IMG/VR virus record: IMGVR_UViG_3300021963_000022
Origin: a virus
Taxonomy: Duplodnaviria > Caudoviricetes
Length of the DNA: 64,000 bases
Reading direction: 5' to 3' (one strand)
Part shown: piece by piece, positions 3,232 to 52,780 of the stretch
How the letters are laid out: each line of letters opens with the position of its first letter
How positions within the stretch are numbered: position 1 is the first letter of the stretch
Notes under the pieces: model-generated
Told to the model about the DNA's origin: nothing
What the model saw: only the letters and a program-made list of their open reading frames with translations
The model's database searches: none
Program-made: the position numbers and the translations under genes

Positions 3232-4350
3232 TTATTGGCCCTGTGTTACTGTGATTTTAGCGCACCCACCTACTGTCGCACAGTTGAAATTGATTGAATA
3301 GAAGTTCTGAGTAGAACCACTCTGACTTAAACTTAAATCTGTAGTAGTACCTGATAATGTAACTTTAGCCATGTGACTAGCACTACCTTGTTGAAGTATG
3401 TCTACGTTTTTGCTTCCACCAAATAGACTAACATCAGCATAATGACTTCCGCTATCTTTCTGTTGAATTAACAATGTGTTATTATTGTTATTCACTGTAG
3501 CAAATATACCTTTGCCTCCACCGGTGCTTTGTTGTTGTAAATTTACATTGTTACTATTGCCAACGACTGAAGCATCTATATAATTTGCTTGTGTATTACT
3601 ATTACCTGATTGAGTAATTGTAATAGTATTACTACTACCATTACTGTAATATTTTGTATAGTTGTTTTTTGTACCTGTTTGATTGACAGTAATTGTATTT
3701 TGATTACCAAGTTGTTCTATATAAACCTGACTGTCTTGTGTTGTACGATTAATAAATGCTTGAACTTTTGCAGTATTATTAGGATCAGCACTAAATGCAG
3801 TAGAACTACCACCGCAACATAGACTCGGTGCAGCCGGTGCGGCTGTTTGTCCTGCGGCTAAAGGTTCAGTAGAATATGTTGCATTAGCATATGCATCTGC
3901 TTGTGCTATAGTAGGGTTCAATGTTCCAGTCCAAGATACACCACTAGTATTTGCCATTCCAGAACTACCACTAAACAATTGACCTGTATTGTTATCACTA
4001 CCTACAAAGAAAAAATAGTCAGGTCCCATGTTAACAATCTTACCGCTACCTAATGTAGCTTTTAGACTCCCTGCACTATTATATTGTTTTGCTGTATAGG
4101 GAAATGATGCATTGCCACTTAATTCAAACTTAACATAATCACCAGTAGCCCATTGCACTTGTCCACTAGTCCATGGTATCTTGTATGCGACACCGGGTTG
4201 TTTACTATATATTTGACAGGTAGTTGTATATAAACAAGCACTTACATTCCATTGACTATCAGCGATTTGGTATCTGCCAAATTTAACATCTGTTAAACTA
4301 GCAAAAGCATTACTACACAAAAATAATAGTAATAAGAATATCTTTTTCAT
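3232..4350 (-). CDS. secreted protein with C-terminal curlin-like repeats
   Basis: Signal peptide MKKIFLLLLFLCSNAFA; C-terminal IEQxGxxNxIxxxQxG-type repeats; lies in the csgFG operon. Confidence 0.7.
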   Translation of the reverse strand: MKKIFLLLLFLCSNAFASLTDVKFGRYQIADSQWNVSACLYTTTCQIYSKQPGVAYKIPWTSGQVQWATGDYVKFELSGNASFPYTAKQYNSAGSLKATLGSGKIVNMGPDYFFFVGSDNNTGQLFSGSSGMANTSGVSWTGTLNPTIAQADAYANATYSTEPLAAGQTAAPAAPSLCCGGSSTAFSADPNNTAKVQAFINRTTQDSQVYIEQLGNQNTITVNQTGTKNNYTKYYSNGSSNTITITQSGNSNTQANYIDASVVGNSNNVNLQQQSTGGGKGIFATVNNNNNTLLIQQKDSGSHYADVSLFGGSKNVDILQQGSASHMAKVTLSGTTTDLSLSQSGSTQNFYSINFNCATVGGCAKITVTQGQ

Positions 4351-18454: not shown

Positions 18455-19552
18455 TCAACTTTCGGAAATACCTTGGTAGTTCTGTAGTAGTTTTTGTATT
18501 GCTGAATTTGCATCAGTACCATTACGTAGAGCCTCTGCTACATCATCAATGAATTCTGTTTGGAAGTCTTGTTTTGTTTCTGGACTTAAGCTACGATATT
18601 TTGCGGCTACTGCACTATTTGCTGTCATATGTTTGTTCCACAATTCTTGTGCATGACCACTACTTTGTGACATTTGACTTTGTTGTTGCTGTTGTTGAGC
18701 CTGTTGTTCCTTATCCTGTTTTACTTTGTTTGCACGTTGAATATACTTAAAGCGATTAGGATCCTTCTTCTTCAAGTCAGTGCGGCTAGCATGGTACTTA
18801 TCTGTTACAGGTCTAAACTGCCCACCATATGGATTGAACAATAAGAACTCTGCATCCTCATCACTTAGATTGCCTATCCCCTTTTGTACATCACTTTGTA
18901 GTTGCTTGATGCCTTTATTATATGCATCATAGTCTGCACCTGTTAATGTATTTGCAGGGAAATCATTATCCATATCAATTTGTGGATAGTTGGCTGAATC
19001 TTTGCTATGTAAGTAGTTCATACCTTTAGCAGTAAATTGGTCTAGTATAAAAGCTCCCTTACCCGGACGTAAAAAGTATAATACCTTTGTAAAGAAACTT
19101 ACACCTAACCCAGGAAGTAATTGTAGTTTACGCAATCTTTGAATCAGGTCAAATGCTTGTGCATTTGTTAGATCACCAAAACGTATTTCGTTTAATGCAT
19201 TGTTGACTTGTCGTCTTGCTTCTTTGTCGTTCTTTAATTTCTTGTACAGTAGTTTGGGGTTGTTAGCACGATTGACCATACCGCCCCAGGCCATAATATA
19301 GAATAACAATTTTAAACTACTATTAGCTTTATCGGCAACCATTGCTTTAACTTCAGGCTTACTGTTTGTAGTAGTTGGATAGTTTTGTGGATTGTTCATT
19401 CCAGAAACAGATGCTAAACGACTAGGGTTATACTTTGCAGGTCCCCTGGCATCCATATATTTGTTACCTTGTGGATCGCTTTGTTGAAGCATTTTCCACT
19501 CGGCTTTTAATAATTTTAAATCTTGTTTGTCAAGCACTTCATTAATACGCAT
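18455..19552 (-). CDS. protein with 8-oxoguanine glycosylase (OGG)-like HhH region
   Basis: IMAWGG and LPGLGVSFFTKVLYF followed by ILDQ; Gln-rich C-terminal part. Confidence 0.6.
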   Translation of the reverse strand: MRINEVLDKQDLKLLKAEWKMLQQSDPQGNKYMDARGPAKYNPSRLASVSGMNNPQNYPTTTNSKPEVKAMVADKANSSLKLLFYIMAWGGMVNRANNPKLLYKKLKNDKEARRQVNNALNEIRFGDLTNAQAFDLIQRLRKLQLLPGLGVSFFTKVLYFLRPGKGAFILDQFTAKGMNYLHSKDSANYPQIDMDNDFPANTLTGADYDAYNKGIKQLQSDVQKGIGNLSDEDAEFLLFNPYGGQFRPVTDKYHASRTDLKKKDPNRFKYIQRANKVKQDKEQQAQQQQQQSQMSQSSGHAQELWNKHMTANSAVAAKYRSLSPETKQDFQTEFIDDVAEALRNGTDANSAIQKLLQNYQGISES

Positions 19553-21781: not shown

Positions 21782-22219
21782 TTAGTGGTGGCCAACTAAT
21801 TCCAATGCTTCTTTGAAGATTTTTTGTTGTCTATTTACAACATCTAATTCCCATGGTAGATTCTGATATTCCTCATAACTCATTTCTTCCGGAAGTTTCT
21901 TAGTATAGGGAATACCATGCCAATAACACATACCATTTTGTGCTATTCTCAATTTACCAGTATGTTTCTGATTAATATGTATTAACTCATGGGTTAATAC
22001 TTTAGGTAATGATTCATAACTAATATTATAGTTAATACCCAATCTATTATCTTTAAACTTATCTATTCCACCATATACATTATGTTCTAATGGATATAAA
22101 CAAACTTCTAATGATTCAGGTAATTCTATTATCTTTGATATTGCAGTAGCAAACGAGGTTATAATAACTTCGTGTTTATAGCTTTGCTGATTGTTTTTGT
22201 AAAAGAATCTAATATACAC
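21782..22219 (-). CDS. putative zinc metallopeptidase
   Basis: HELIH (HExxH) and downstream PWE motif. Confidence 0.7.
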   Translation of the reverse strand: MYIRFFYKNNQQSYKHEVIITSFATAISKIIELPESLEVCLYPLEHNVYGGIDKFKDNRLGINYNISYESLPKVLTHELIHINQKHTGKLRIAQNGMCYWHGIPYTKKLPEEMSYEEYQNLPWELDVVNRQQKIFKEALELVGHH

Positions 22220-22222
22220 AGA

Positions 22223-22690
22223 TTAGTTAGTATCTTCTGTTACTTTAAATCGGTTTGAATATTCATAGTTAACTGTATCTAGATTCTCACGGAAAACAAT
22301 AGCCCCATTACGTAAGTGAAATCTTCTAGCCATTTCAGTTTTAGGACTTAATGTAACAAATCTAGTAACACTAGGATATTCACGTTGAATGCCTTTTACT
22401 GCTTCAATTAATAACTCTTGACCTTTACCTGCTTTATAACTCCATATTGTGTAGAATACTGCAGTGGTCGGGACTGTTGCAGTAGTCTGCAAATCTGTAG
22501 TGTCTTGTGGTACAAAATCATGGAAACTAACACAAACCATCGCTTCTGGATTGTCTGCATTATCGTCGGTTAGTGCGGCAACCATTCTGCCGTTGCTGAC
22601 TCTAAAGTCAGTTGGTATTTCAGGCCGAACGGGATCGTCCTTAATGAAATCAAGTAGTTTATTAGTGAGGTCTTTGATGAAGTGGAGCAT
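22223..22690 (-). CDS. hypothetical protein (acyltransferase-like fold possible)
   Basis: 155 aa ORF; FYTIWSYKAGKGQELL. Confidence 0.65.
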   Translation of the reverse strand: MLHFIKDLTNKLLDFIKDDPVRPEIPTDFRVSNGRMVAALTDDNADNPEAMVCVSFHDFVPQDTTDLQTTATVPTTAVFYTIWSYKAGKGQELLIEAVKGIQREYPSVTRFVTLSPKTEMARRFHLRNGAIVFRENLDTVNYEYSNRFKVTEDTN

Positions 22691-22728
22691 AGTAAATGTA
22701 TTTAGTCATAGCGCATAAAATACATATA

Positions 22729-23558: not shown

Positions 23559-24458
23559 ATGAACAATTATGAGCATTTTTCAAAGCTATGTGAGAGCATA
23601 GTAACAGAGGTTAGTACTGCTATGGCTGAGTTTAAAGGGCCCGGGGCACAGGAAGTACTAAAGTATCTACATCAAAGTCAAGCTTTTGGGCATGATGTTG
23701 ATATCAGACCATTAGCTAGACCAAAGTGGGCAGACCTTAGAAGTCCAGACTATGCTGATTCATGGTTTTTAATTTCAGGTACTAAAGGGTTTGTAGCGGC
23801 AAAATTTGCAAAAGGATCTTATCGTAATACTGGGACATTTATGATATTTGCTAGTAATGGTACACCTGATCCTGAAGAGGGTAACATAGTATATTCTACT
23901 ACAATAGATTCAGCGGTAGAGGCTAACAATTATGTCAAGTCTTTTATCGGTGATGCTAAAAAATATTATATAGCCCGATCAGAATATTCAACAACTTTGC
24001 GTAATACACGAAAAGCAAATAAACCCACAGAGATAAGCGATATGCATGTGGTCAGTAACAAGCTAGTGCAAAGATTCAAGCCGTTGTTTAACAAAATATT
24101 AGTTGCATCTAGGGCTGATGTTAACGGTGTCATTAGTTCTATGGTAAAGAATGATGCACATCATCGTGCAGAAAAGAAGATTGAGCATTTAAATCTAATA
24201 GATAGAAGTATTGATGAATTACAAGACGGGCAAATATCAGATTTTCTTAAAGATGCTGTAGGTAATAGTTTAATGATGACAGCAAGATACTACTACCCCG
24301 ATAAAACAGGTAACATTAGTAGCTCATATGGATATCGCAATTATGCATACTCATCTGAAAGTTCCGAAGGTGTTAAACAAGTATTAAAAGACATTCAATC
24401 TGGTGATAGACAAAAACTAAGTGCCGTACTTGCCTATCTAAAGAGGAGTTTAATATAA
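23559..24458 (+). CDS. hypothetical protein, candidate virion internal protein
   Basis: 299 aa; ATAAATA upstream; N-terminus ends in LCES. Confidence 0.75.
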   Translation: MNNYEHFSKLCESIVTEVSTAMAEFKGPGAQEVLKYLHQSQAFGHDVDIRPLARPKWADLRSPDYADSWFLISGTKGFVAAKFAKGSYRNTGTFMIFASNGTPDPEEGNIVYSTTIDSAVEANNYVKSFIGDAKKYYIARSEYSTTLRNTRKANKPTEISDMHVVSNKLVQRFKPLFNKILVASRADVNGVISSMVKNDAHHRAEKKIEHLNLIDRSIDELQDGQISDFLKDAVGNSLMMTARYYYPDKTGNISSSYGYRNYAYSSESSEGVKQVLKDIQSGDRQKLSAVLAYLKRSLI

Positions 24459-32343: not shown

Positions 32344-32826
32344 TTACTTCATAGATTGTACAAATTCAGTAGAACCTATCGTATACCATGCACCATCTAC
32401 TTGCCATCTTACGTTTGGTATCTTTCCTTGCAGGTATTGCATTATAATATAAGACAATAGTTTTGAATCCATCTTTTGACCCATTTCTATAAGATTGAGA
32501 AAATAGTGTCCATGCTGTTCACTAACATTCATCAATACTTTAGATTGACTAGGTTTCATCCATTCAGGAAATATTTCTGGATGCATTAACCATGCACATT
32601 TATAAGATACGCAAGGATTTTCAGGTCTATCATTGTATATTGTACAGCCATTACTACCTTTGTAATGGCAAGGCATTCCGTTAAAAAAATGGTGACCGTA
32701 TGCTTCACCGCTTAACCAACCTTCACAACATGCGGTACAACCATCACATTTTCTATCTATAACAGGTTTAGTTTTCTCTAAAGTGTTAGCATCAACTATG
32801 GGAATTGTTTTCTTTTTTTTAGACAT
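32344..32826 (-). CDS. YkgJ-like Cys-cluster (Zn/Fe-S) protein
   Basis: CDGCTACC and CTIYNDRPENPC..C motifs. Confidence 0.75.
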   Translation of the reverse strand: MSKKKKTIPIVDANTLEKTKPVIDRKCDGCTACCEGWLSGEAYGHHFFNGMPCHYKGSNGCTIYNDRPENPCVSYKCAWLMHPEIFPEWMKPSQSKVLMNVSEQHGHYFLNLIEMGQKMDSKLLSYIIMQYLQGKIPNVRWQVDGAWYTIGSTEFVQSMK

Positions 32827-36978: not shown

Positions 36979-37422
36979 ATTGTTTCTATTTTTAGACTTA
37001 TATGTAGGGAGTTGCGAATCGCAATTACTACACACAAATCTTAAATTTTCTAAACGATTGTCATTATTAATCCCGTTAATATGGTCAAGTATTAACGGCA
37101 TTGGTTTATCTTGCCATTCAGGTCCTATATTACAGCAAGCACATTTGTACTCTATTAAGTTTTTTGATTTTATTCTTGCTTTAATACTATGCCGTGCATA
37201 TGTAGAATTTTCACAAAACACCTCTGCATCGGGATATAATATATCCCATTTAGCATGACGCCCTAATTTTTTACCTGTATTCCAAGCAATATGTCCTTTT
37301 TGTGCTCCTGCTTTAGCTGAATGCTTGTGTTTAATTTTATTTGGATTACTATGACATGACATTTCATGTGCTTTTAGCGATCCTTTGTTATTTATTTCTC
37401 TGTTACAATGTGGGCAGTTCAT
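36970..37422 (-). mobile_element. free-standing HNH homing endonuclease
   Basis: CPHC zinc knuckle; LILDHINGINNDNRLENLRFVCSNCDSQ HNH motif; ATAAATA and AGGA upstream. Confidence 0.9.
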
Positions 37423-37473
37423 AATAGTTTCCTTACTCTTATTTATGCTTTATAGCAATAATTTGACATTTTG

Positions 37474-37503
37474 ATGCTATAAACCTGACTCTGCCACGTT
37501 TCC
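37474..37503 (-). pseudogene. 5' fragment of a tRNA-Ser-like gene
   Basis: GGAAACGTGGCAGAGTCAGGTTTATAGCA: acceptor strand plus Ser-type D-arm, then sequence breaks off. Confidence 0.7.
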
Positions 37504-37509
37504 ATAATA

Positions 37510-37586
37510 TGGTAGAAGCAGTGGGATTCGAACCCACGACTCTCGGATTAAAAGTCCGATACTCTAGCCAACTGAGTTATGCTTCC
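37510..37586 (-). tRNA. tRNA-Lys(TTT)
   Basis: Loop CT-TTT-AA, CCA. Confidence 0.95.
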
Positions 37587-37592
37587 ATATAT

Positions 37593-37669
37593 TGGTGCGA
37601 CCGGAAGGACTTGAACCTCCGACTCCCTGTTTCGTAGACAGGTACTCTAATCCACTGAGTTACGGTCGC
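37593..37669 (-). tRNA. tRNA-Arg(ACG)
   Basis: Loop CT-ACG-AA, CCA. Confidence 0.95.
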
Positions 37670-37734
37670 ATTCTAAAACATACTTTGGGGATTTCACTTA
37701 ACGCCTCCCTAACTCAAAGTATGTTTTAGAATGC
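37668..37734. repeat. perfect 20-bp inverted repeat abutting the first tRNA of the array
   Basis: GCATTCTAAAACATACTTTG (37668-37687) / CAAAGTATGTTTTAGAATGC (37715-37734). Confidence 0.9.
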
Positions 37735-38088
37735 CGTGTATCTCTACACGACACGATAGGGTTATACCCTACCCAGTAGTCTTACTCTTTGTGTTATCGC
37801 CACAAATTTCATATATACTGTCCGCCCATTCTATACATTTTGCGCTGTATCACGGCTCTCGTTGCCTGTTCACGCTGTCTATCAAGTGATACCAGTCTGC
37901 TCGTTAGCTTTCTTAGTAGCCATATGATAGATCCTAGCACGGTCGATTTTATTCTGTATCAACTGTGCTAAATCTTCCTTTGTCAAAACATGATTGCTAA
38001 ACCAATCTCGTTTGTCTTCAGAAGTTTTGTATTGTATCTCTTTGTCCATTTATTGTCAAATTTCCTTTTGTTGTATTTTTACAACGCT

Positions 38089-38124
38089 AACAAAAAACCC
38101 TGAGAGTCTTTCGATTCCCAGGGT
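38089..38124 (-). terminator. intrinsic terminator upstream of the tRNA array (attenuator terminator)
   Basis: ACCCUGGGAAUC-GAAA-GACUCUCAGGGU followed by UUUUUGUU. Confidence 0.85.
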
Positions 38125-38153
38125 CTTGATAATGTCGTTATGATGTTAACTTG

Positions 38154-38288
38154 TTACCTAGGCCCCGGGCTATACTCTAGTGTATCATTGCCGCGAATAC
38201 TTGTTGGATATACTGGTGCAAAGGATACTGTGGCGATTGACTGCCATTGTCCCATATGCTTCAGCGATTTACAAGTTTTATTCATCAT
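38154..38288 (-). CDS. candidate leader peptide (44 aa) containing all 20 amino acids
   Basis: MMNKTCKSLKHMGQWQSIATVSFAPVYPTSIRGNDTLEYSPGPR; stop codon lies inside a predicted antiterminator arm. Confidence 0.6.
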   Translation of the reverse strand: MMNKTCKSLKHMGQWQSIATVSFAPVYPTSIRGNDTLEYSPGPR

Positions 38289-38343
38289 AGTCTTTTATTT
38301 AGTCCTGGTTGTAAATTAGTGCTAAATTGCACTTTTTCAATTC

Positions 38344-39984
38344 ATGCTGAAGTATAACAGACTATTGATTAAACGTCAACCTTTAGTTTACCCAAATAGT
38401 TATACAGCTACAACAACAGTCACTAAATATTTCATGCTATTCATACCTACTAACTACGAAACCGTCTTCCTTAGCTATGACGAACCAAATTGCGAAAGTA
38501 ATTACAAACGTCTATTAGAACTATGTCCAACTGCTAAAAGAGTACACGGAGTCAAGGGATCTGATACTGCACACAAAAAAGTAGCTGAACTATGTACAGG
38601 TGATCGTGTTAACATCATCGACGGTGATAACTATGTGCGGTCTGACTTCTTTACAAACGAGTATAACATAGATGACTTTAATTGTAAAGTTGTTAGCTTT
38701 AGTACTAGAAATCATATCAACGGACTACAATATGGAAACGGTAGTATCAAATCATGGCCCGTTACTCTACTAAAAGAAATGCGTACCCATGAAAATACAA
38801 ATAGTAATACTACATTAGTAGACTTTGACTTTGGTAACTATCTGCAGGTTAACACTCTAGGTAGCTGTGTTATTAACAACGGTAGCCCATTACAAGCGTG
38901 GCGTGCTGGATTCCGTGAAGGTGTTAAACTATGTATGAGGAATGGATTAGTTGTATCTAGTCTAGAGGAAATCGACTGGCGTAACTTTGATAGACTATGG
39001 AACTGGATGCACATAGGCAGTGATGTAGTCAACGGACTATGGGCTATACACGGGGCACGTTTTGGATGCTGGCAAGCATTACTTAACTTCGACTTGAAAA
39101 ATCTACATGACTTTAACTATATAGATAATATGTTCTATGACCTTACGTTTAGCGATTCAAAATTTAGAGATAGATTAGAAACAGAATGTAACAGAATTGG
39201 TCAACTAATTCGTGTAAAAACAAACGACCGTAGAATAAAAAACGTATACAGCAATGGAGATAGCAAACTGTACAAGGAACAAGTAAAACCTATATTACGC
39301 TGTCCTGACAACAAACCATATGACATTGTATTCATTAGCTATAATGAACTCAATTGTGACAAAAACTACAAACTTTTGTTAACAAGATTCCCTAGAGCTA
39401 AACGCATACATGGAGTCAAGGGAATACACAATGCACACATAGAAGCGGCAAAACTGTGTGATACTGATTACTTTTGGGTAGTTGATGGTGATGCTGAAAT
39501 TGTAGATGACTTTAAGTTTGACTATGTTGTACCTTTCTATGATAACTTATGTACACGTGTTTGGAGAGCAAAGAATCCAGTCAATGACTTGGTATATGGA
39601 TATGGTGGAGTAAAACTATTACCCAGAACAGCAACGGTACGAATGAATACAGACAGACCTGATATGACTACAAGCATATGTAAGAACTATGAACCCATAA
39701 TGGTTGTTAGTAACATAGCACAATTTAATACTGACCCATTCAATACATGGAGATCGGCATTCAGAGAATGTACTAAACTAAGTAGTCAGGTCATACCCGG
39801 ACAAATTGATGACGAAACAAAGAAACGATTAGACATATGGTGTACAACGGGTACTGACAGTTATGCAATCGATGGTGCTATCAAAGGACGTGAGTACGGT
39901 GAACAGCATAGACATAATATGAATATGCTACAAAAGATAAATGACTTTGTGTGGATGAAGGAACAGTATGACAGATTTCACTGA
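38344..39984 (+). CDS. tandem two-domain glycosyltransferase-like protein
   Basis: Two internally homologous halves (VFxSYxExN..NYKxLL..PxAKRxHGVKG, DGD, AWRxxFRE); true start probably 38434. Confidence 0.65.
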   Translation: MLKYNRLLIKRQPLVYPNSYTATTTVTKYFMLFIPTNYETVFLSYDEPNCESNYKRLLELCPTAKRVHGVKGSDTAHKKVAELCTGDRVNIIDGDNYVRSDFFTNEYNIDDFNCKVVSFSTRNHINGLQYGNGSIKSWPVTLLKEMRTHENTNSNTTLVDFDFGNYLQVNTLGSCVINNGSPLQAWRAGFREGVKLCMRNGLVVSSLEEIDWRNFDRLWNWMHIGSDVVNGLWAIHGARFGCWQALLNFDLKNLHDFNYIDNMFYDLTFSDSKFRDRLETECNRIGQLIRVKTNDRRIKNVYSNGDSKLYKEQVKPILRCPDNKPYDIVFISYNELNCDKNYKLLLTRFPRAKRIHGVKGIHNAHIEAAKLCDTDYFWVVDGDAEIVDDFKFDYVVPFYDNLCTRVWRAKNPVNDLVYGYGGVKLLPRTATVRMNTDRPDMTTSICKNYEPIMVVSNIAQFNTDPFNTWRSAFRECTKLSSQVIPGQIDDETKKRLDIWCTTGTDSYAIDGAIKGREYGEQHRHNMNMLQKINDFVWMKEQYDRFH

Positions 39985-41916: not shown

Positions 41917-42518
41917 AAATTGATTTAGAACATTTACACTACTGGATGCAAGCTATTAGAAATAGCGAGAACCAAATGCGAACCATGGATGCATTTTGGA
42001 GTGGACAACTTAAAAGTAAAGAATGGTTAATAGATAGCTTAGAGTTTGTTGTCCGTCCATATATTAACAAAACAAAACTAGCAGTAGACATTCACGGTGG
42101 ATGGGTAGGGGTATTGGCTAGTATGTTATTTCAAAGTAATTTACATATATCATCTATACGTAGTGTTGATATAGACCATACTTGCGAATCAATTGCTAAT
42201 ATGATGAACCGTAAAGAAGAATTAGAGAATAGATTTAGAGCAGTAACATATGATATGTGTGACATTAGATCCGATGCTGATATCATTATTAATACAAGCT
42301 GTGAACATATTACACAGGATCAATATGATTTGTGGTTAAGTGGGCTACCACACAATAGTTTAATCGTGTTACAAAGCAATAACTATGACATACCAGAACA
42401 TGTTAGAATCTGTAATGATTTACAGGACTTTAAGAGTCAAAGCAGCTTAAAAGTCCTGTTTCAAGGAGAGTTACAATTACCGTTGTACTCTCGTTATATG
42501 CTAATTGGTAAGTTATAA
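41913..42518 (+). CDS. SAM-dependent methyltransferase-like protein
   Basis: IHGGWVGVL Gly-rich motif, SVDID, INTSCEH. Confidence 0.7.
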   Translation: MKIDLEHLHYWMQAIRNSENQMRTMDAFWSGQLKSKEWLIDSLEFVVRPYINKTKLAVDIHGGWVGVLASMLFQSNLHISSIRSVDIDHTCESIANMMNRKEELENRFRAVTYDMCDIRSDADIIINTSCEHITQDQYDLWLSGLPHNSLIVLQSNNYDIPEHVRICNDLQDFKSQSSLKVLFQGELQLPLYSRYMLIGKL

Positions 42519-43238
42519 GTTTCTAACTAGTTTACCTGCTTGGGCATCAGCAATTGTAGCATCACTTGCGGCATTTTTAGGTATAGTAACTAATTGACCT
42601 TCAAGTGTAAGATATTGGTAGTTATCATCAACTAATGTTAATGAATCAAAAACATTGTTGCTCACAAAGAAATTAATAGTAACATAACGTGTAGCTGTTG
42701 AATTATACTTTGCCCACGTAACATTTGATGTAGGGCAATACATGCTAGCTGTATTATACTGATTAGTAACCGTTGCATTCTCAGACTCTGGGTCATTGGA
42801 TTTATATAGCACGGTTTCTATATTAATGTTTGGTGTCATAAACGAAACAATGTTACATACTTTGTCAATTGCACTATCATTAATATACGGAAATATATGA
42901 TTGGGTGCTATTACACTAAATGAAGGTACACACATAACACTAGAATAATTTCTATGATTTGGATACTTGGTAAAAATATTACTAAGATTATCTAGTATAG
43001 ACTCATTTGCTTCTGAAATAAGGTCAAACGCTTCTTGGCCAATAGCATCTTTGGCATCATATATAGATATATTAGTCAAACCATCATACGTTTCGGTAGG
43101 ATTTAAAGTGGCTAATAGCCCTTGAATTCCTTCGGTAATTTTGGTGTGTGCATCAGTTTCAAAAAAACCAGAAACGCTTTGGTGAGACCATGGAGTCGTC
43201 TGAATTGGGGAGTTGAGTAGGTTATTAATGTTAAACAT
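42513..43238 (-). CDS. hypothetical protein, degenerate 2OG-Fe(II) oxygenase-like
   Basis: PWSH start motif and DSBH-like C-terminus; canonical HxD..H ligands not evident. Confidence 0.5.
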   Translation of the reverse strand: MFNINNLLNSPIQTTPWSHQSVSGFFETDAHTKITEGIQGLLATLNPTETYDGLTNISIYDAKDAIGQEAFDLISEANESILDNLSNIFTKYPNHRNYSSVMCVPSFSVIAPNHIFPYINDSAIDKVCNIVSFMTPNINIETVLYKSNDPESENATVTNQYNTASMYCPTSNVTWAKYNSTATRYVTINFFVSNNVFDSLTLVDDNYQYLTLEGQLVTIPKNAASDATIADAQAGKLVRNL

Positions 43239-51021: not shown

Positions 51022-51931
51022 AATATATCCTTGTGTATGGTAATAGTGTTATGTTCTTTGTTATACATAGTTCATCTATTAATATGTAGCGTTCTTTACT
51101 GTAATCATTTAATGATGTGATATAATGATATACATTGCTGATCCAGAGTGTTGAGCCGTTTGGAATAACATCTAATAAACGTTTTATATCTTTTGTATTC
51201 CGCATATCAATTAGCTCGAATCCAACATTAATTGTTCTAAGATAATCATAGTACGTGTTTAGTTTAATAAAGTCAATACCATTAATATCGTCTATTGTAG
51301 CAGGATTAAACCCTGTTGTCAATAGTCCTAGATACTTGACATATGTGTCATATCGGTTGTTTGAATGTAATAACTCTTGTTGGAAGCTTAAGCTATCATT
51401 ACTGTAGTCATAATAGATAACACTTTCCAGCATGTTTTCATATGCTAATTGTGCTAAATGTGACCCACTACTAAGTCCTGCAAGTGCCACAGTATCGGTA
51501 ATGATGGGCAATGGTTCTGTGTTTATAGCGTACACTTTCCTATCATTCTCGTATGTGTTAATGATATCCGTAATAATATTACGGTCTGTTGTATTATAGA
51601 GGTCGTATACGTTATCAGTGAATGTTGTTATAACTGTATTATCGGTTGATTTTTTTAATACAAGTTTACCATTCTTATATACTTCCACGTTGGGTAGTTT
51701 ACGTATCTTATTGTTTAAGTCTGGGTGACAAATTATACCCTCATCTATCAGATAATAGGGTTTAGTATATGTCCCAATATTGGGCTTAACTGTGTTAATT
51801 TTGTCGTTCTGTAACAATATACCATAATGCACTAGGCTTTGGGCAGTGTATATGTTTTGTTTATTGTTTAAATATAGATGGTAATCTAGCATGAGATAAA
51901 TATTTAGTTCATAAATAAGCACCCAATGCAA
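51011..51931 (-). CDS. hypothetical protein
   Basis: ~290-306 aa ORF; true start probably at MLDYHL after ATAAATA. Confidence 0.65.
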   Translation of the reverse strand: MHWVLIYELNIYLMLDYHLYLNNKQNIYTAQSLVHYGILLQNDKINTVKPNIGTYTKPYYLIDEGIICHPDLNNKIRKLPNVEVYKNGKLVLKKSTDNTVITTFTDNVYDLYNTTDRNIITDIINTYENDRKVYAINTEPLPIITDTVALAGLSSGSHLAQLAYENMLESVIYYDYSNDSLSFQQELLHSNNRYDTYVKYLGLLTTGFNPATIDDINGIDFIKLNTYYDYLRTINVGFELIDMRNTKDIKRLLDVIPNGSTLWISNVYHYITSLNDYSKERYILIDELCITKNITLLPYTRIYYES

Positions 51932-52780
51932 AAGTATACACCAACTGAGAATGCATTAGTCCCATACGTATTCCCCGAAATATCTGAGTTATTTAAAAAT
52001 AACATAGAGTTACCTCATTGGGATACCCGCCATGACATATTAAACAACTACCGTACTGAATGTCTTAATTGGTTGCAAAATGGTAATAGTACTATAATCC
52101 GTGGCTTAGAACGTTTCAAGTATGTTTATGTATTATATGGTGGCAGTCAGTATATTGATGATTTAGTTAAGTTTGAAGACCGTCACATAGAATTACATAA
52201 GCATGAATATGTAGCATATAGAACACTATTAGACTTACATAATATGAAATTTACCCAGCATGATTCATTTGATACTATGGGTAAGGATTCAGATAAGTTA
52301 GTGATAGTTAGTTATCCGTTCAGTTTAAACGGGAACAGGGATGTTGATATAGAGAAACTATTAACTGAATCTACTAGTAAAATCACACTGGACAGCGTAT
52401 TCTTAGGTACTAATATGTTCCCTATTACATTAGACTTTAATAAATTATCTAACGTTGAAAGTTTTGTATTCAGTTTTAGTAAAGGGTTTGGATTAAGATA
52501 TTCTAGGATTGGGATTATGTTTACAGATAAATTCATTCCGGAGTATGACATATATCATAAGTATGCTTATTTAAATCTATATTCTTGCCAGATTGCACGT
52601 GAGTTAATGAGTAAATACAATATAGATTACTTTACAGAGAAGTATAAATCTGTGCAGGAAGAAGCCTGCAAATTATTAAACGTGGCTACATCAGATTGTT
52701 TACATTTGGGTATTGATACTAATACAGACTATCCTGATAAGAAAGTTAGAATCACACATTTATTTGACAAATTATGCTAA
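51926..52780 (+). CDS. PLP-dependent aminotransferase-like protein
   Basis: LDSVF, FSFSKGFGLRYSRIG (SxSK..G.R.G). Confidence 0.75.
   Translation: MQKYTPTENALVPYVFPEISELFKNNIELPHWDTRHDILNNYRTECLNWLQNGNSTIIRGLERFKYVYVLYGGSQYIDDLVKFEDRHIELHKHEYVAYRTLLDLHNMKFTQHDSFDTMGKDSDKLVIVSYPFSLNGNRDVDIEKLLTESTSKITLDSVFLGTNMFPITLDFNKLSNVESFVFSFSKGFGLRYSRIGIMFTDKFIPEYDIYHKYAYLNLYSCQIARELMSKYNIDYFTEKYKSVQEEACKLLNVATSDCLHLGIDTNTDYPDKKVRITHLFDKLC

Follow-up and report, generated by a model that had tools for sequence, protein, structure and literature searches.

A putative translation-sensing attenuator with an all-20 amino acid leader peptide upstream of tRNA arrays in uncultured phages

Attenuators of bacterial amino-acid operons (trpL, hisL, leuL, thrL, the ilv leaders, and pheL) share a promoter, a short leader, an intrinsic terminator, and an alternative hairpin that uses one strand of the terminator. 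The other strand of this hairpin lies at the end of the leader open reading frame (ORF), and a ribosome that finishes the leader makes termination likelier while a lagging ribosome makes read-through likelier. Here, we describe an element with this layout in a 64,000-nucleotide stretch of viral DNA (Duplodnaviria; Caudoviricetes; IMG/VR record IMGVR_UViG_3300021963_000022), hereafter referred to as the window. The element is encoded on the minus strand and is flanked by a glycosyltransferase-like gene (plus strand) and a tRNA array, and its leader ORF contains every one of the 20 amino acids. In leaders of amino-acid operons, by contrast, codons occur in runs and specify the one or few amino acids that the operon makes, and their targets are biosynthetic enzymes. 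In the phage element the coverage of all 20 amino acids (all-20 content) itself appears to be selected, and a small ORF (ORF2) and the tRNA array lie downstream. The phage leaders are also long (44-59 codons), and the family shows no conserved 1:2 helix (pause or anti-antiterminator).

Other regulatory leaders resemble the element in part. In pyrBI, UTP-dependent pausing of the polymerase is the signal, and a ribosome close behind the polymerase keeps the terminator hairpin from forming. The phage element would likewise be set by how closely the lead ribosome trails the polymerase at the terminator, but here it is the antiterminator that a close ribosome would block, and decoding speed is presumed to be the signal. 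T-box leaders are untranslated and bind one specific uncharged tRNA directly, coupling tRNA charging to the choice between terminator and antiterminator, whereas the phage leader would sample all tRNAs indirectly via the ribosome. Leader ORFs that sense general translation stress have been described for toiL-topAI of E. coli (PMC12121999) and vmlR of B. subtilis (PMC9226507). As in these two, a short upstream ORF would raise downstream transcription whenever ribosomes slow or stall, for whatever reason. The toiL and vmlR leaders, however, are triggered at particular stall sites by antibiotics that target the ribosome (with toiL acting via Rho), have no reported composition rule, and control host genes. 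No sequence likeness was seen between the phage leader and the toiL, vmlR, erm, or cat leaders, and its downstream genes are ORF2 and tRNAs.

Why phages carry tRNA genes is debated, with codon compensation on the one hand and the replacement of tRNAs destroyed by host defences on the other. To our knowledge, essentially nothing has been established about how phage tRNA genes are controlled. In their accessible parts, papers on host systems that cleave tRNAs present phage tRNA sets as a counter that replaces depleted or cleaved host tRNAs (PMC10264068, PMC11555353, PMC11464382); these parts deal with the tRNAs themselves and mention no such regulatory element. Nor did full-text searches on all-20 leader peptides, attenuation of phage tRNA genes, and attenuators of jumbo phages turn up such an element.

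Distribution and amino acid content of the leader ORF

The leader ORF had been singled out in an initial annotation made from the sequence alone, and both its coordinates (38288-38154, minus strand; 44 codons followed by TAA) and its complement of all 20 amino acids were confirmed. Searches of INPHARED by megablast and blastn, with the window element and two divergent family members as queries, returned no cultured relatives. Uncultured relatives were retrieved in two ways. An anchor consisting of ORF2 only, which is independent of finding the leader, yielded 18 loci on IMG/VR contigs of up to 525 kb. All 18 have the upstream motif described below, the leader ORF, and the terminator hairpin ahead of ORF2, and tRNA genes are downstream in all of them and upstream in none. 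Scanning with a 14-nucleotide motif added at least about 50 further loci, for a total of at least 78 loci of uncultured phages. Among the loci listed there are 53 distinct peptides and 54 distinct ORF sequences, which form 17 clusters at 60% identity; the peptides are 35-59 amino acids long, or 44-59 apart from one truncated copy. The module is ordered throughout the family as promoter P1, 16-nucleotide motif, leader ORF, intrinsic terminator, usually a second promoter (P2), and tRNA array. DNA sequencing runs that contain the window's own stretch carry mostly freshwater or lake labels, along with some fungus and marine metagenome labels. One contig (IMGVR_UViG_3300027749_002876; 524,565 bp) holds two different leader-plus-tRNA-array modules about 290 kb apart; either its genome has two arrays or the assembly is chimeric.

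The sequences behave as coding DNA. The reading frame is open in 54/54 distinct sequences, while the +1 and +2 frames are open in 0/54, with a mean of 4.3 stops each. Differences in length between relatives are due to in-frame indels, and conserved stretches, including LKHxGQW, vary synonymously (CTG/CTA, AAG/AAA, GGA/GGT, and CAA/CAG). The ratio of nonsynonymous to synonymous polymorphism (pN/pS) within clusters is 0.45-0.52, which indicates that selection is present and is far looser than would be expected for a folded protein. Peptides diverge down to about 25-40% identity with all-20 coverage retained and rare residues relocating, and the positions of the start and of the stop relative to the downstream helix are conserved in all relatives, as the initial annotation had anticipated for a genuine leader. 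Pfam gave no match for the ORF, and a library of 5.8 billion proteins contained only three relatives of the peptide, all of them 78-98% identical.

The initial annotation also cautioned that the ATG lacks a good Shine-Dalgarno (SD) sequence. Indeed, there is no well-spaced one, but the doubt is softened by other genes of this phage. About half of its long genes lack an SD, and at least six such genes carry (A/T)TAAATA 5-10 nucleotides ahead of the ATG, the same context as the leader ORF; these are the genes at 18455-19552, 22223-22690, 32344-32826, and 42513-43238 on the minus strand and 23559-24458 and 51926-52780 on the plus strand. By rough estimate, the occurrence of (A/T)TAAATA before ATGs without SD is far above chance. 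It could be a late-promoter-like box that gives near-leaderless mRNAs, or a signal for translation initiation. The arrangement GACTAAATA-N8-ATG is present at 22690-22711 as well.

The initial annotation had built on the all-20 content of this one peptide, which by itself is not beyond chance. The probability that a 44-residue peptide contains all 20 amino acids is 1.3-1.7%, whether computed from the proteins of this phage or from the family composition, and 2 of the 88 ATG-initiated ORFs of 40-60 amino acids in the window do so. The second of these (21782-21931, minus strand) is a fragment from within a 145-residue gene and was set aside as irrelevant. The case for all-20 content therefore rests on the relatives. 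All 20 residues are present in 48 of the 53 distinct peptides, against a null expectation of 1.3-8% per peptide, and the five exceptions either miss one residue type (D, V, V, C) or correspond to the truncated copy. Among the cluster representatives, 16/17 are complete, compared with 3.8 +/- 1.5 under within-column permutation (maximum 10 in 20,000). A tree-aware simulation, with per-column empirical frequencies, parsimony rates, and an all-20 root, gave 18.9 +/- 6.8 complete tips out of 52 (maximum 41 in 1000 runs), compared with 48 observed; this simulation is conservative because the simulated sequences diverged less than the real ones.

Next to these counts, the rare residues show how completeness is kept. 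Cys, His, and Trp are each present in very nearly one copy per peptide, and where a cluster representative has lost one of them from its usual column it is found elsewhere in 4/5 (Cys), 3/3 (His), and 1/1 (Trp) cases. Specifically, His moves from K-H to N-H-Q, P-H-Q, or W-H, Cys from position 6 to E-C-S, S-C-P, or T-C-A, Trp to S-W-A, and Phe from S-F to G-S-F-D. Likewise, Phe, Asp, Glu, Val, and Tyr always reappear when their usual column is lost. As a control, the neighbouring ORF2 family, which is of similar length and derives from the same genomes, contains all 20 amino acids in 0/30 distinct members, each with 16-18 residue types. Judged from these sequence comparisons, all-20 content is a selected property of the leader peptide. 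The 27 tRNAs of the window serve 18 amino acids, with tRNA-Phe and tRNA-Tyr absent, while several relatives have tRNA-Phe and one has tRNA-Tyr. Since the leader retains Phe and Tyr although the window array lacks their tRNAs, its coverage is no mirror of the phage's own tRNA set.

Codon variety is raised as well. When codons were resampled synonymously from the codon usage of this phage, the number of distinct codons exceeded expectation in 17/17 representatives (mean z +2.2; +1.5 without the helix codons). For Ser, Arg, and Leu, each with two codon boxes, both boxes occur in 46/51 cases, where 36.6 would be expected. This codon-level excess is suggestive, and relaxed bias of a short ORF or constraints at the RNA level could give the same result.

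Competing antiterminator and terminator helices

Two hairpins that share a strand follow each other at the end of the leader. The antiterminator 5' strand (38169-38154, CCCGGGGCCUAGGUAA), with a CCCGGGG core and GGUAA, spans the last five codons and the stop, and its 3' strand (38132-38117, UUAUCAAGACCCUGGG; UUAUC...CCCUGGG) overlaps the 5' arm of the intrinsic terminator, so that the two structures are mutually exclusive. The pairing proposed in the initial annotation, with 14/16 positions paired when G-U is included, was found again and is the minimum-free-energy fold of the 91-nucleotide 3' segment (-27.9 kcal/mol, z -3.5). A small apical hairpin of four pairs, GUUA-N6-UAAC (38150-38137), lies within the antiterminator loop. 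The terminator (38124-38092 with its U tract) likewise held up, with a GAAA loop in its hairpin (38124-38097) followed by U6, a 12-pair stem with one A.C mismatch, and a stability of -14.5 kcal/mol. It is present in the minimum-free-energy fold of the whole 255-nucleotide transcript, which folds better than shuffled sequences (z -2.6). A simple terminator scan missed this hairpin owing to its A.C mismatch, which lies two pairs below the loop. The antiterminator and the terminator are of comparable stability. A trp-like 1:2 helix in the window fold (UUCG-C-GGC with GCC-CGGG) was dropped as a family feature because its pairing is not kept in relatives.

Both hairpins are kept in the relatives, as the initial annotation had expected of a functional switch, with changes in the upper stem and loop of the terminator and co-variation in the inner helix of the antiterminator. 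To detect the antiterminator, the RNA of each relative (n=44) was folded up to the terminator 3' arm, with that arm excluded. The terminator 5' arm (CCCUGGG) pairs upstream with at least some of its bases in 44/44 relatives, and its partner lies in the last 41 nucleotides of the ORF in 42/44. In the class of ORFs with 44-48 codons the partner strand is at -13..-7 from the stop, with the stop codon inside the helix, and in the class with 52-59 codons it is at -41..-22; RNAalifold recovered the same antiterminator helix in both length classes. Moreover, none of about 45 relatives with complete sequence retains the terminator while having lost the ORF or the antiterminator.

The conservation of this helix is found at the level of nucleotides. 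The CCCGGGG core is read as Ser-Pro-Gly, Thr-Arg-Gly, or Gly-Pro-Gly in three different frames, and a shorter CCGGG as Phe-Arg, pointing to a constraint on the RNA rather than on the amino acids. The inner helix differs between clusters and still remains complementary (GGUAA/UUAUC, GAAUAA/UUAUUC, and GGAAUAA/UUAUUUU, as well as AGGUAAACA/UGUUUAUUU, GUUUCAUAGA/UUUAUGAAAC, and GGGGCUUC/GAAGCCCC). Cognate strands pair at -21.5 kcal/mol compared with -17.8 +/- 0.47 for permuted partners, a gain of 3.7 kcal/mol or about 8 standard deviations.

Plain MAFFT alignment followed by RNAalifold gave no structure for the short-ORF class, half of the CCCGGGG cores being misplaced by one column, and was superseded by a covariance-model alignment of 25 short-class sequences. 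In this alignment, which leans toward the structure supplied to it, 94% of cells are paired and compensatory changes occur in 4/18 pairs (e.g., G-C 14, A-U 8, and G-U 2), with a covariation score of 0.123 against 0.078 +/- 0.008 when shuffled and at most 0.066 when slid. The four pairs of the apical hairpin are 100% paired in the 25 relatives, and two of them show compensatory changes. Covariation lends the antiterminator real though modest support.

The window differs from two otherwise identical IMG/VR contigs (470 nucleotides aligned) only at 38162 and 38183. Both differences are among the final 10 leader codons and alter the peptide (Pro43Thr and Thr36Ser, respectively); position 38162, which is A in nearly all relatives, is unpaired within the antiterminator.

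Promoters, ORF2, and entry into the tRNA array

The leader is preceded by a near-consensus sigma70 promoter, P1 (38379-38351, minus strand; TTGACG-17-TATACT with a TG-extended -10), with a predicted start near 38344. The initial annotation had overlooked P1 and reported one sigma70 promoter, located between the terminator and the array, which was found again at 38059-38031 (P2). In nearly all relatives a sigma70 match of 10-12/12 lies upstream of the 16-nucleotide motif, about 84 nucleotides away and in some cases 36-76. This motif (AACCAGGACTAAATAA, 38310-38295) ends 6 nucleotides ahead of the ATG, includes an AGGA and a TAAATA late-promoter-like box, and is near-invariant across the family, a conservation to be read with the caveat that the motif doubled as the search key for relatives. 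We rejected CCAGGACTAAATA as a repeated promoter of the window, with one full match and weaker matches at chance level; only its TAAATA portion recurs ahead of window genes. Between P1 and the motif, the 5' untranslated region folds into the hairpin AGTGC-N6-GCACT (38333-38318). One relative (L004) has AGTGT/ACACT in place of AGTGC/GCACT, and in several cluster representatives the hairpin found here differs in sequence and has an A-rich loop, while others have a weak one or none.

The first gene that depends on read-through is ORF2 (38049-37882, minus strand), which the initial annotation had not considered. It encodes 55 amino acids, with W16, L30, and K34 invariant in its family, and is probably a two-helix protein according to an AlphaFold model; no match was found in Pfam, PHROGs, or ESM Atlas. 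Its SD (38067-38063) and ATG (38049) are upstream of the predicted P2 start. P2 (TTGACA-17-TACAAT, 11/12 match) has its predicted start near 38025, inside ORF2. Specifically, the SD precedes the -35 box, the start codon lies 4 nucleotides past that box, and codons 5-7 form the -10 box. Transcripts from P2 start about 23 nucleotides inside ORF2 and therefore cannot encode it; only read-through of the terminator can.

The situation of the tRNA genes is different. P2 is present in about three quarters of the relatives (TTGACA, 17-nucleotide spacer, TA(C/G)AAT or TATACT), and it is kept also in relatives without ORF2, which makes it a promoter in its own right. The claim that read-through would merely add to basal tRNA expression thus stands for the window and for those relatives. 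It does not stand for the remaining quarter, in which the stretch from the terminator to the first tRNA contains no sigma70-like promoter and in which read-through from P1 would, on promoter predictions, be the only sigma70-type entry to the array. In the window, about 210 non-coding nucleotides separate ORF2 from the first tRNA gene, tRNA-Arg(ACG) (37669-37593), which heads the 27 genes of the array (37669-29289). In relatives the first tRNA lies 276-600 nucleotides past the terminator, and about 1000-1400 in a few. Two relatives (L015 and L017) carry an HNH-type ORF at about 3545-4000, between the leader terminator, which has a U3 tract there, and P2/ORF2.

The non-coding stretch at 37880-37670 (minus strand) is itself conserved (GGCAACGAGAGCCG ... 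AAUGGGCGGACAG), and related sequence directly follows the terminator in five relatives without P2 and ORF2 (L059, L095, L112, L143, and L148). Rfam gave no match for it, and it may be a structured RNA at the head of the array. The leader region (38090-38345) also had no Rfam match at E values up to 10, and only tRNAs and chance hits were obtained within 37000-39000. On the other side of the module, the glycosyltransferase-like ORF of 546 amino acids (38344-39984, plus strand) probably starts at Met31 (38434); homologues of 513-520 amino acids cover 95% of it, and P1 lies on the opposite strand within its first 12 codons. Its sole match in the phage collection is to the Ralstonia jumbo phage RsoM2USA (39% identity). 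Synteny through this gene was tried and discarded, as its relatives at 67-76% identity have other neighbours.

Public metatranscriptomes provided a few contigs over the region. A 151-nucleotide piece from an RNA library, identical to the window, runs from 38140 to 37990 and hence across the terminator, and two further studies each contributed a piece whose end, at 38010 in one and 38011 in the other, lies near the start predicted for P2. A 250-nucleotide contig of a 96%-identical relative covers the ORF and the terminator and continues into P2, and a contig of a more divergent relative also spans the terminator.

Proposed mechanism and alternative explanations

Read from sequence, the element is probably a ribosome-mediated leader-peptide attenuator that gauges overall decoding, gates ORF2, and adds to tRNA transcription. 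We infer that the ORF is translated and that the hairpin terminates transcription, as well as the direction of the switch and its physiological trigger. According to this model, the host RNA polymerase would start at P1 (about 38344) and transcribe the 44-codon ORF. A prompt ribosome would arrive at the last codons, or move past them, during synthesis of the terminator by the polymerase, and would cover or melt CCCGGGG...GGUAA. This would free CCCUGGG for the terminator, and transcription would end at the U tract (about 38092-38097). A ribosome lagging or stalled at any codon, be it through a missing charged tRNA, a cleaved tRNA, or a general slowing of translation, would instead let the antiterminator hairpin (38169-38117) form first, and the polymerase would read through. 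Read-through would be the only source of ORF2 message and would supplement the P2-driven transcription of the array. As the leader samples all the amino acids and more kinds of codon than expected by chance, delay at any of them would be registered.

Several observations weigh against the attenuator model. Most amino acids are represented by 1-3 scattered codons, with no tandem runs of regulatory codons. Published modelling relates the sensitivity of attenuators to how many regulatory codons there are and where they lie (PMC1183508), and mild starvation may therefore elicit a weak response. For a stall more than 100 nucleotides upstream, the effect must come from a lagging ribosome and not from local unmasking. 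The model also leaves some features of the leader unaccounted for, among them the 16-nucleotide motif ahead of the ATG, and codon sampling does not explain K-H-x-G-x-W or the near-invariant AGT-ATT-CGC-GG (Ser-Ile-Arg-Gly), in which CGC is an Arg codon rare in this phage (8%). The only SD-like sequence of the leader, AGGA, lies 14 nucleotides from the ATG. In the long-ORF class the stop is about 20 nucleotides past the antiterminator 5' strand, so that a terminating ribosome would not sit directly on it. Compensatory changes are few, the antiterminator being largely plain conserved sequence with most pairs invariant, and some relatives have a U tract of only 3. Furthermore, the tRNAs have an independent P2 in most relatives, window included. 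Finally, metatranscriptome coverage is sparse, and one contig runs upstream past the -10 box and -35 hexamer of P1, which may reflect DNA carry-over or upstream transcription. Having mostly single codons, the design seems to fit general slowing, or the severe loss of one tRNA species, better than mild starvation.

A more specific version of the attenuator model would be a one-codon-per-tRNA checkpoint for the catastrophic loss of any tRNA, such as that caused by a host anticodon nuclease, and not for mild starvation, which would switch on ORF2 as an effector and boost replacement tRNAs. We put this forward tentatively and consider it less likely than not, the link between the leader and anticodon nucleases being conjectural.

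Among the readings that dispense with sensing through decoding, the first is that of an ordinary gene, transcribed from its own promoter up to its own terminator and having the small protein itself as its product, whose 3' hairpin stabilizes the mRNA or couples translation and overlaps the terminator by chance. The ORF is conserved and annotated by gene callers, contains the motifs KH.G.W and (T)PSIRG, has a pN/pS below 1, and does come with a promoter and a terminator of its own. However, a functional fold would not predict that all 20 amino acids are retained while rare residues relocate, a structural protein would be expected to have a pN/pS lower than about 0.5, and the C-terminal 'PG' is conserved as nucleotides across frames and not as amino acids. 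The lack of a Pfam match and the mere three close relatives among 5.8 billion proteins also speak against it, and the fixed place at the head of tRNA arrays would be unaccounted for. We consider this explanation unlikely.

Alternatively, the hairpin could be a constitutively leaky terminator or insulator between an early P1 and a P2-driven array, with translation setting a fixed level of read-through and nothing being sensed. This would agree with the presence of P2 after the terminator in most relatives, with the weakened U tracts of several of them, and with the RNA-library contigs that cross the terminator. It would account neither for the selection on all-20 content and the raised codon diversity nor for a conserved competing helix located exactly at the end of the ORF, and we regard it as quite unlikely.

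The strong conservation of SIRG and of its spacing to W, which extends to synonymous positions, could also point to a nascent-peptide arrest sensor of the TnaC/SecM type (KH.G.W ... PSIRG) that responds to one ligand or factor, with all-20 content being secondary. The likeness of SIRG to GIRAGP, which we take to be the SecM arrest motif, is superficial, and the SecM-like reading was set aside as no Pro follows IRG. Moreover, the motif precedes the stop by 10-25 codons, its distance from the antiterminator varies, and the relocation of rare residues would be left unexplained, which makes an arrest sensor very improbable. A non-coding small RNA of about 250 nucleotides from P1 to the terminator, with a fortuitous ORF, would fit the discrete promoter-to-terminator unit, the better-than-shuffled folding of the whole transcript (z -2.6), and the 5' hairpin of several relatives, but a frame open in every distinct sequence despite many indels, with the other two never open, and the absence of an Rfam match make it highly implausible.

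If the attenuator model is correct, the element would be the first attenuator from nature to report on decoding capacity as a whole rather than on one amino acid, and it would represent a case in which the composition of a peptide, and not its sequence, is the selected trait. As a compact and portable part (a promoter, an ORF of about 135 nucleotides, and a switch), it should work with polymerases and ribosomes of the E. coli type and could serve as a reporter of translation stress. The model also singles out ORF2 as the gene wired to the decoding signal. If the checkpoint version holds, these phages would encode a sensor of a whole class of host defences.

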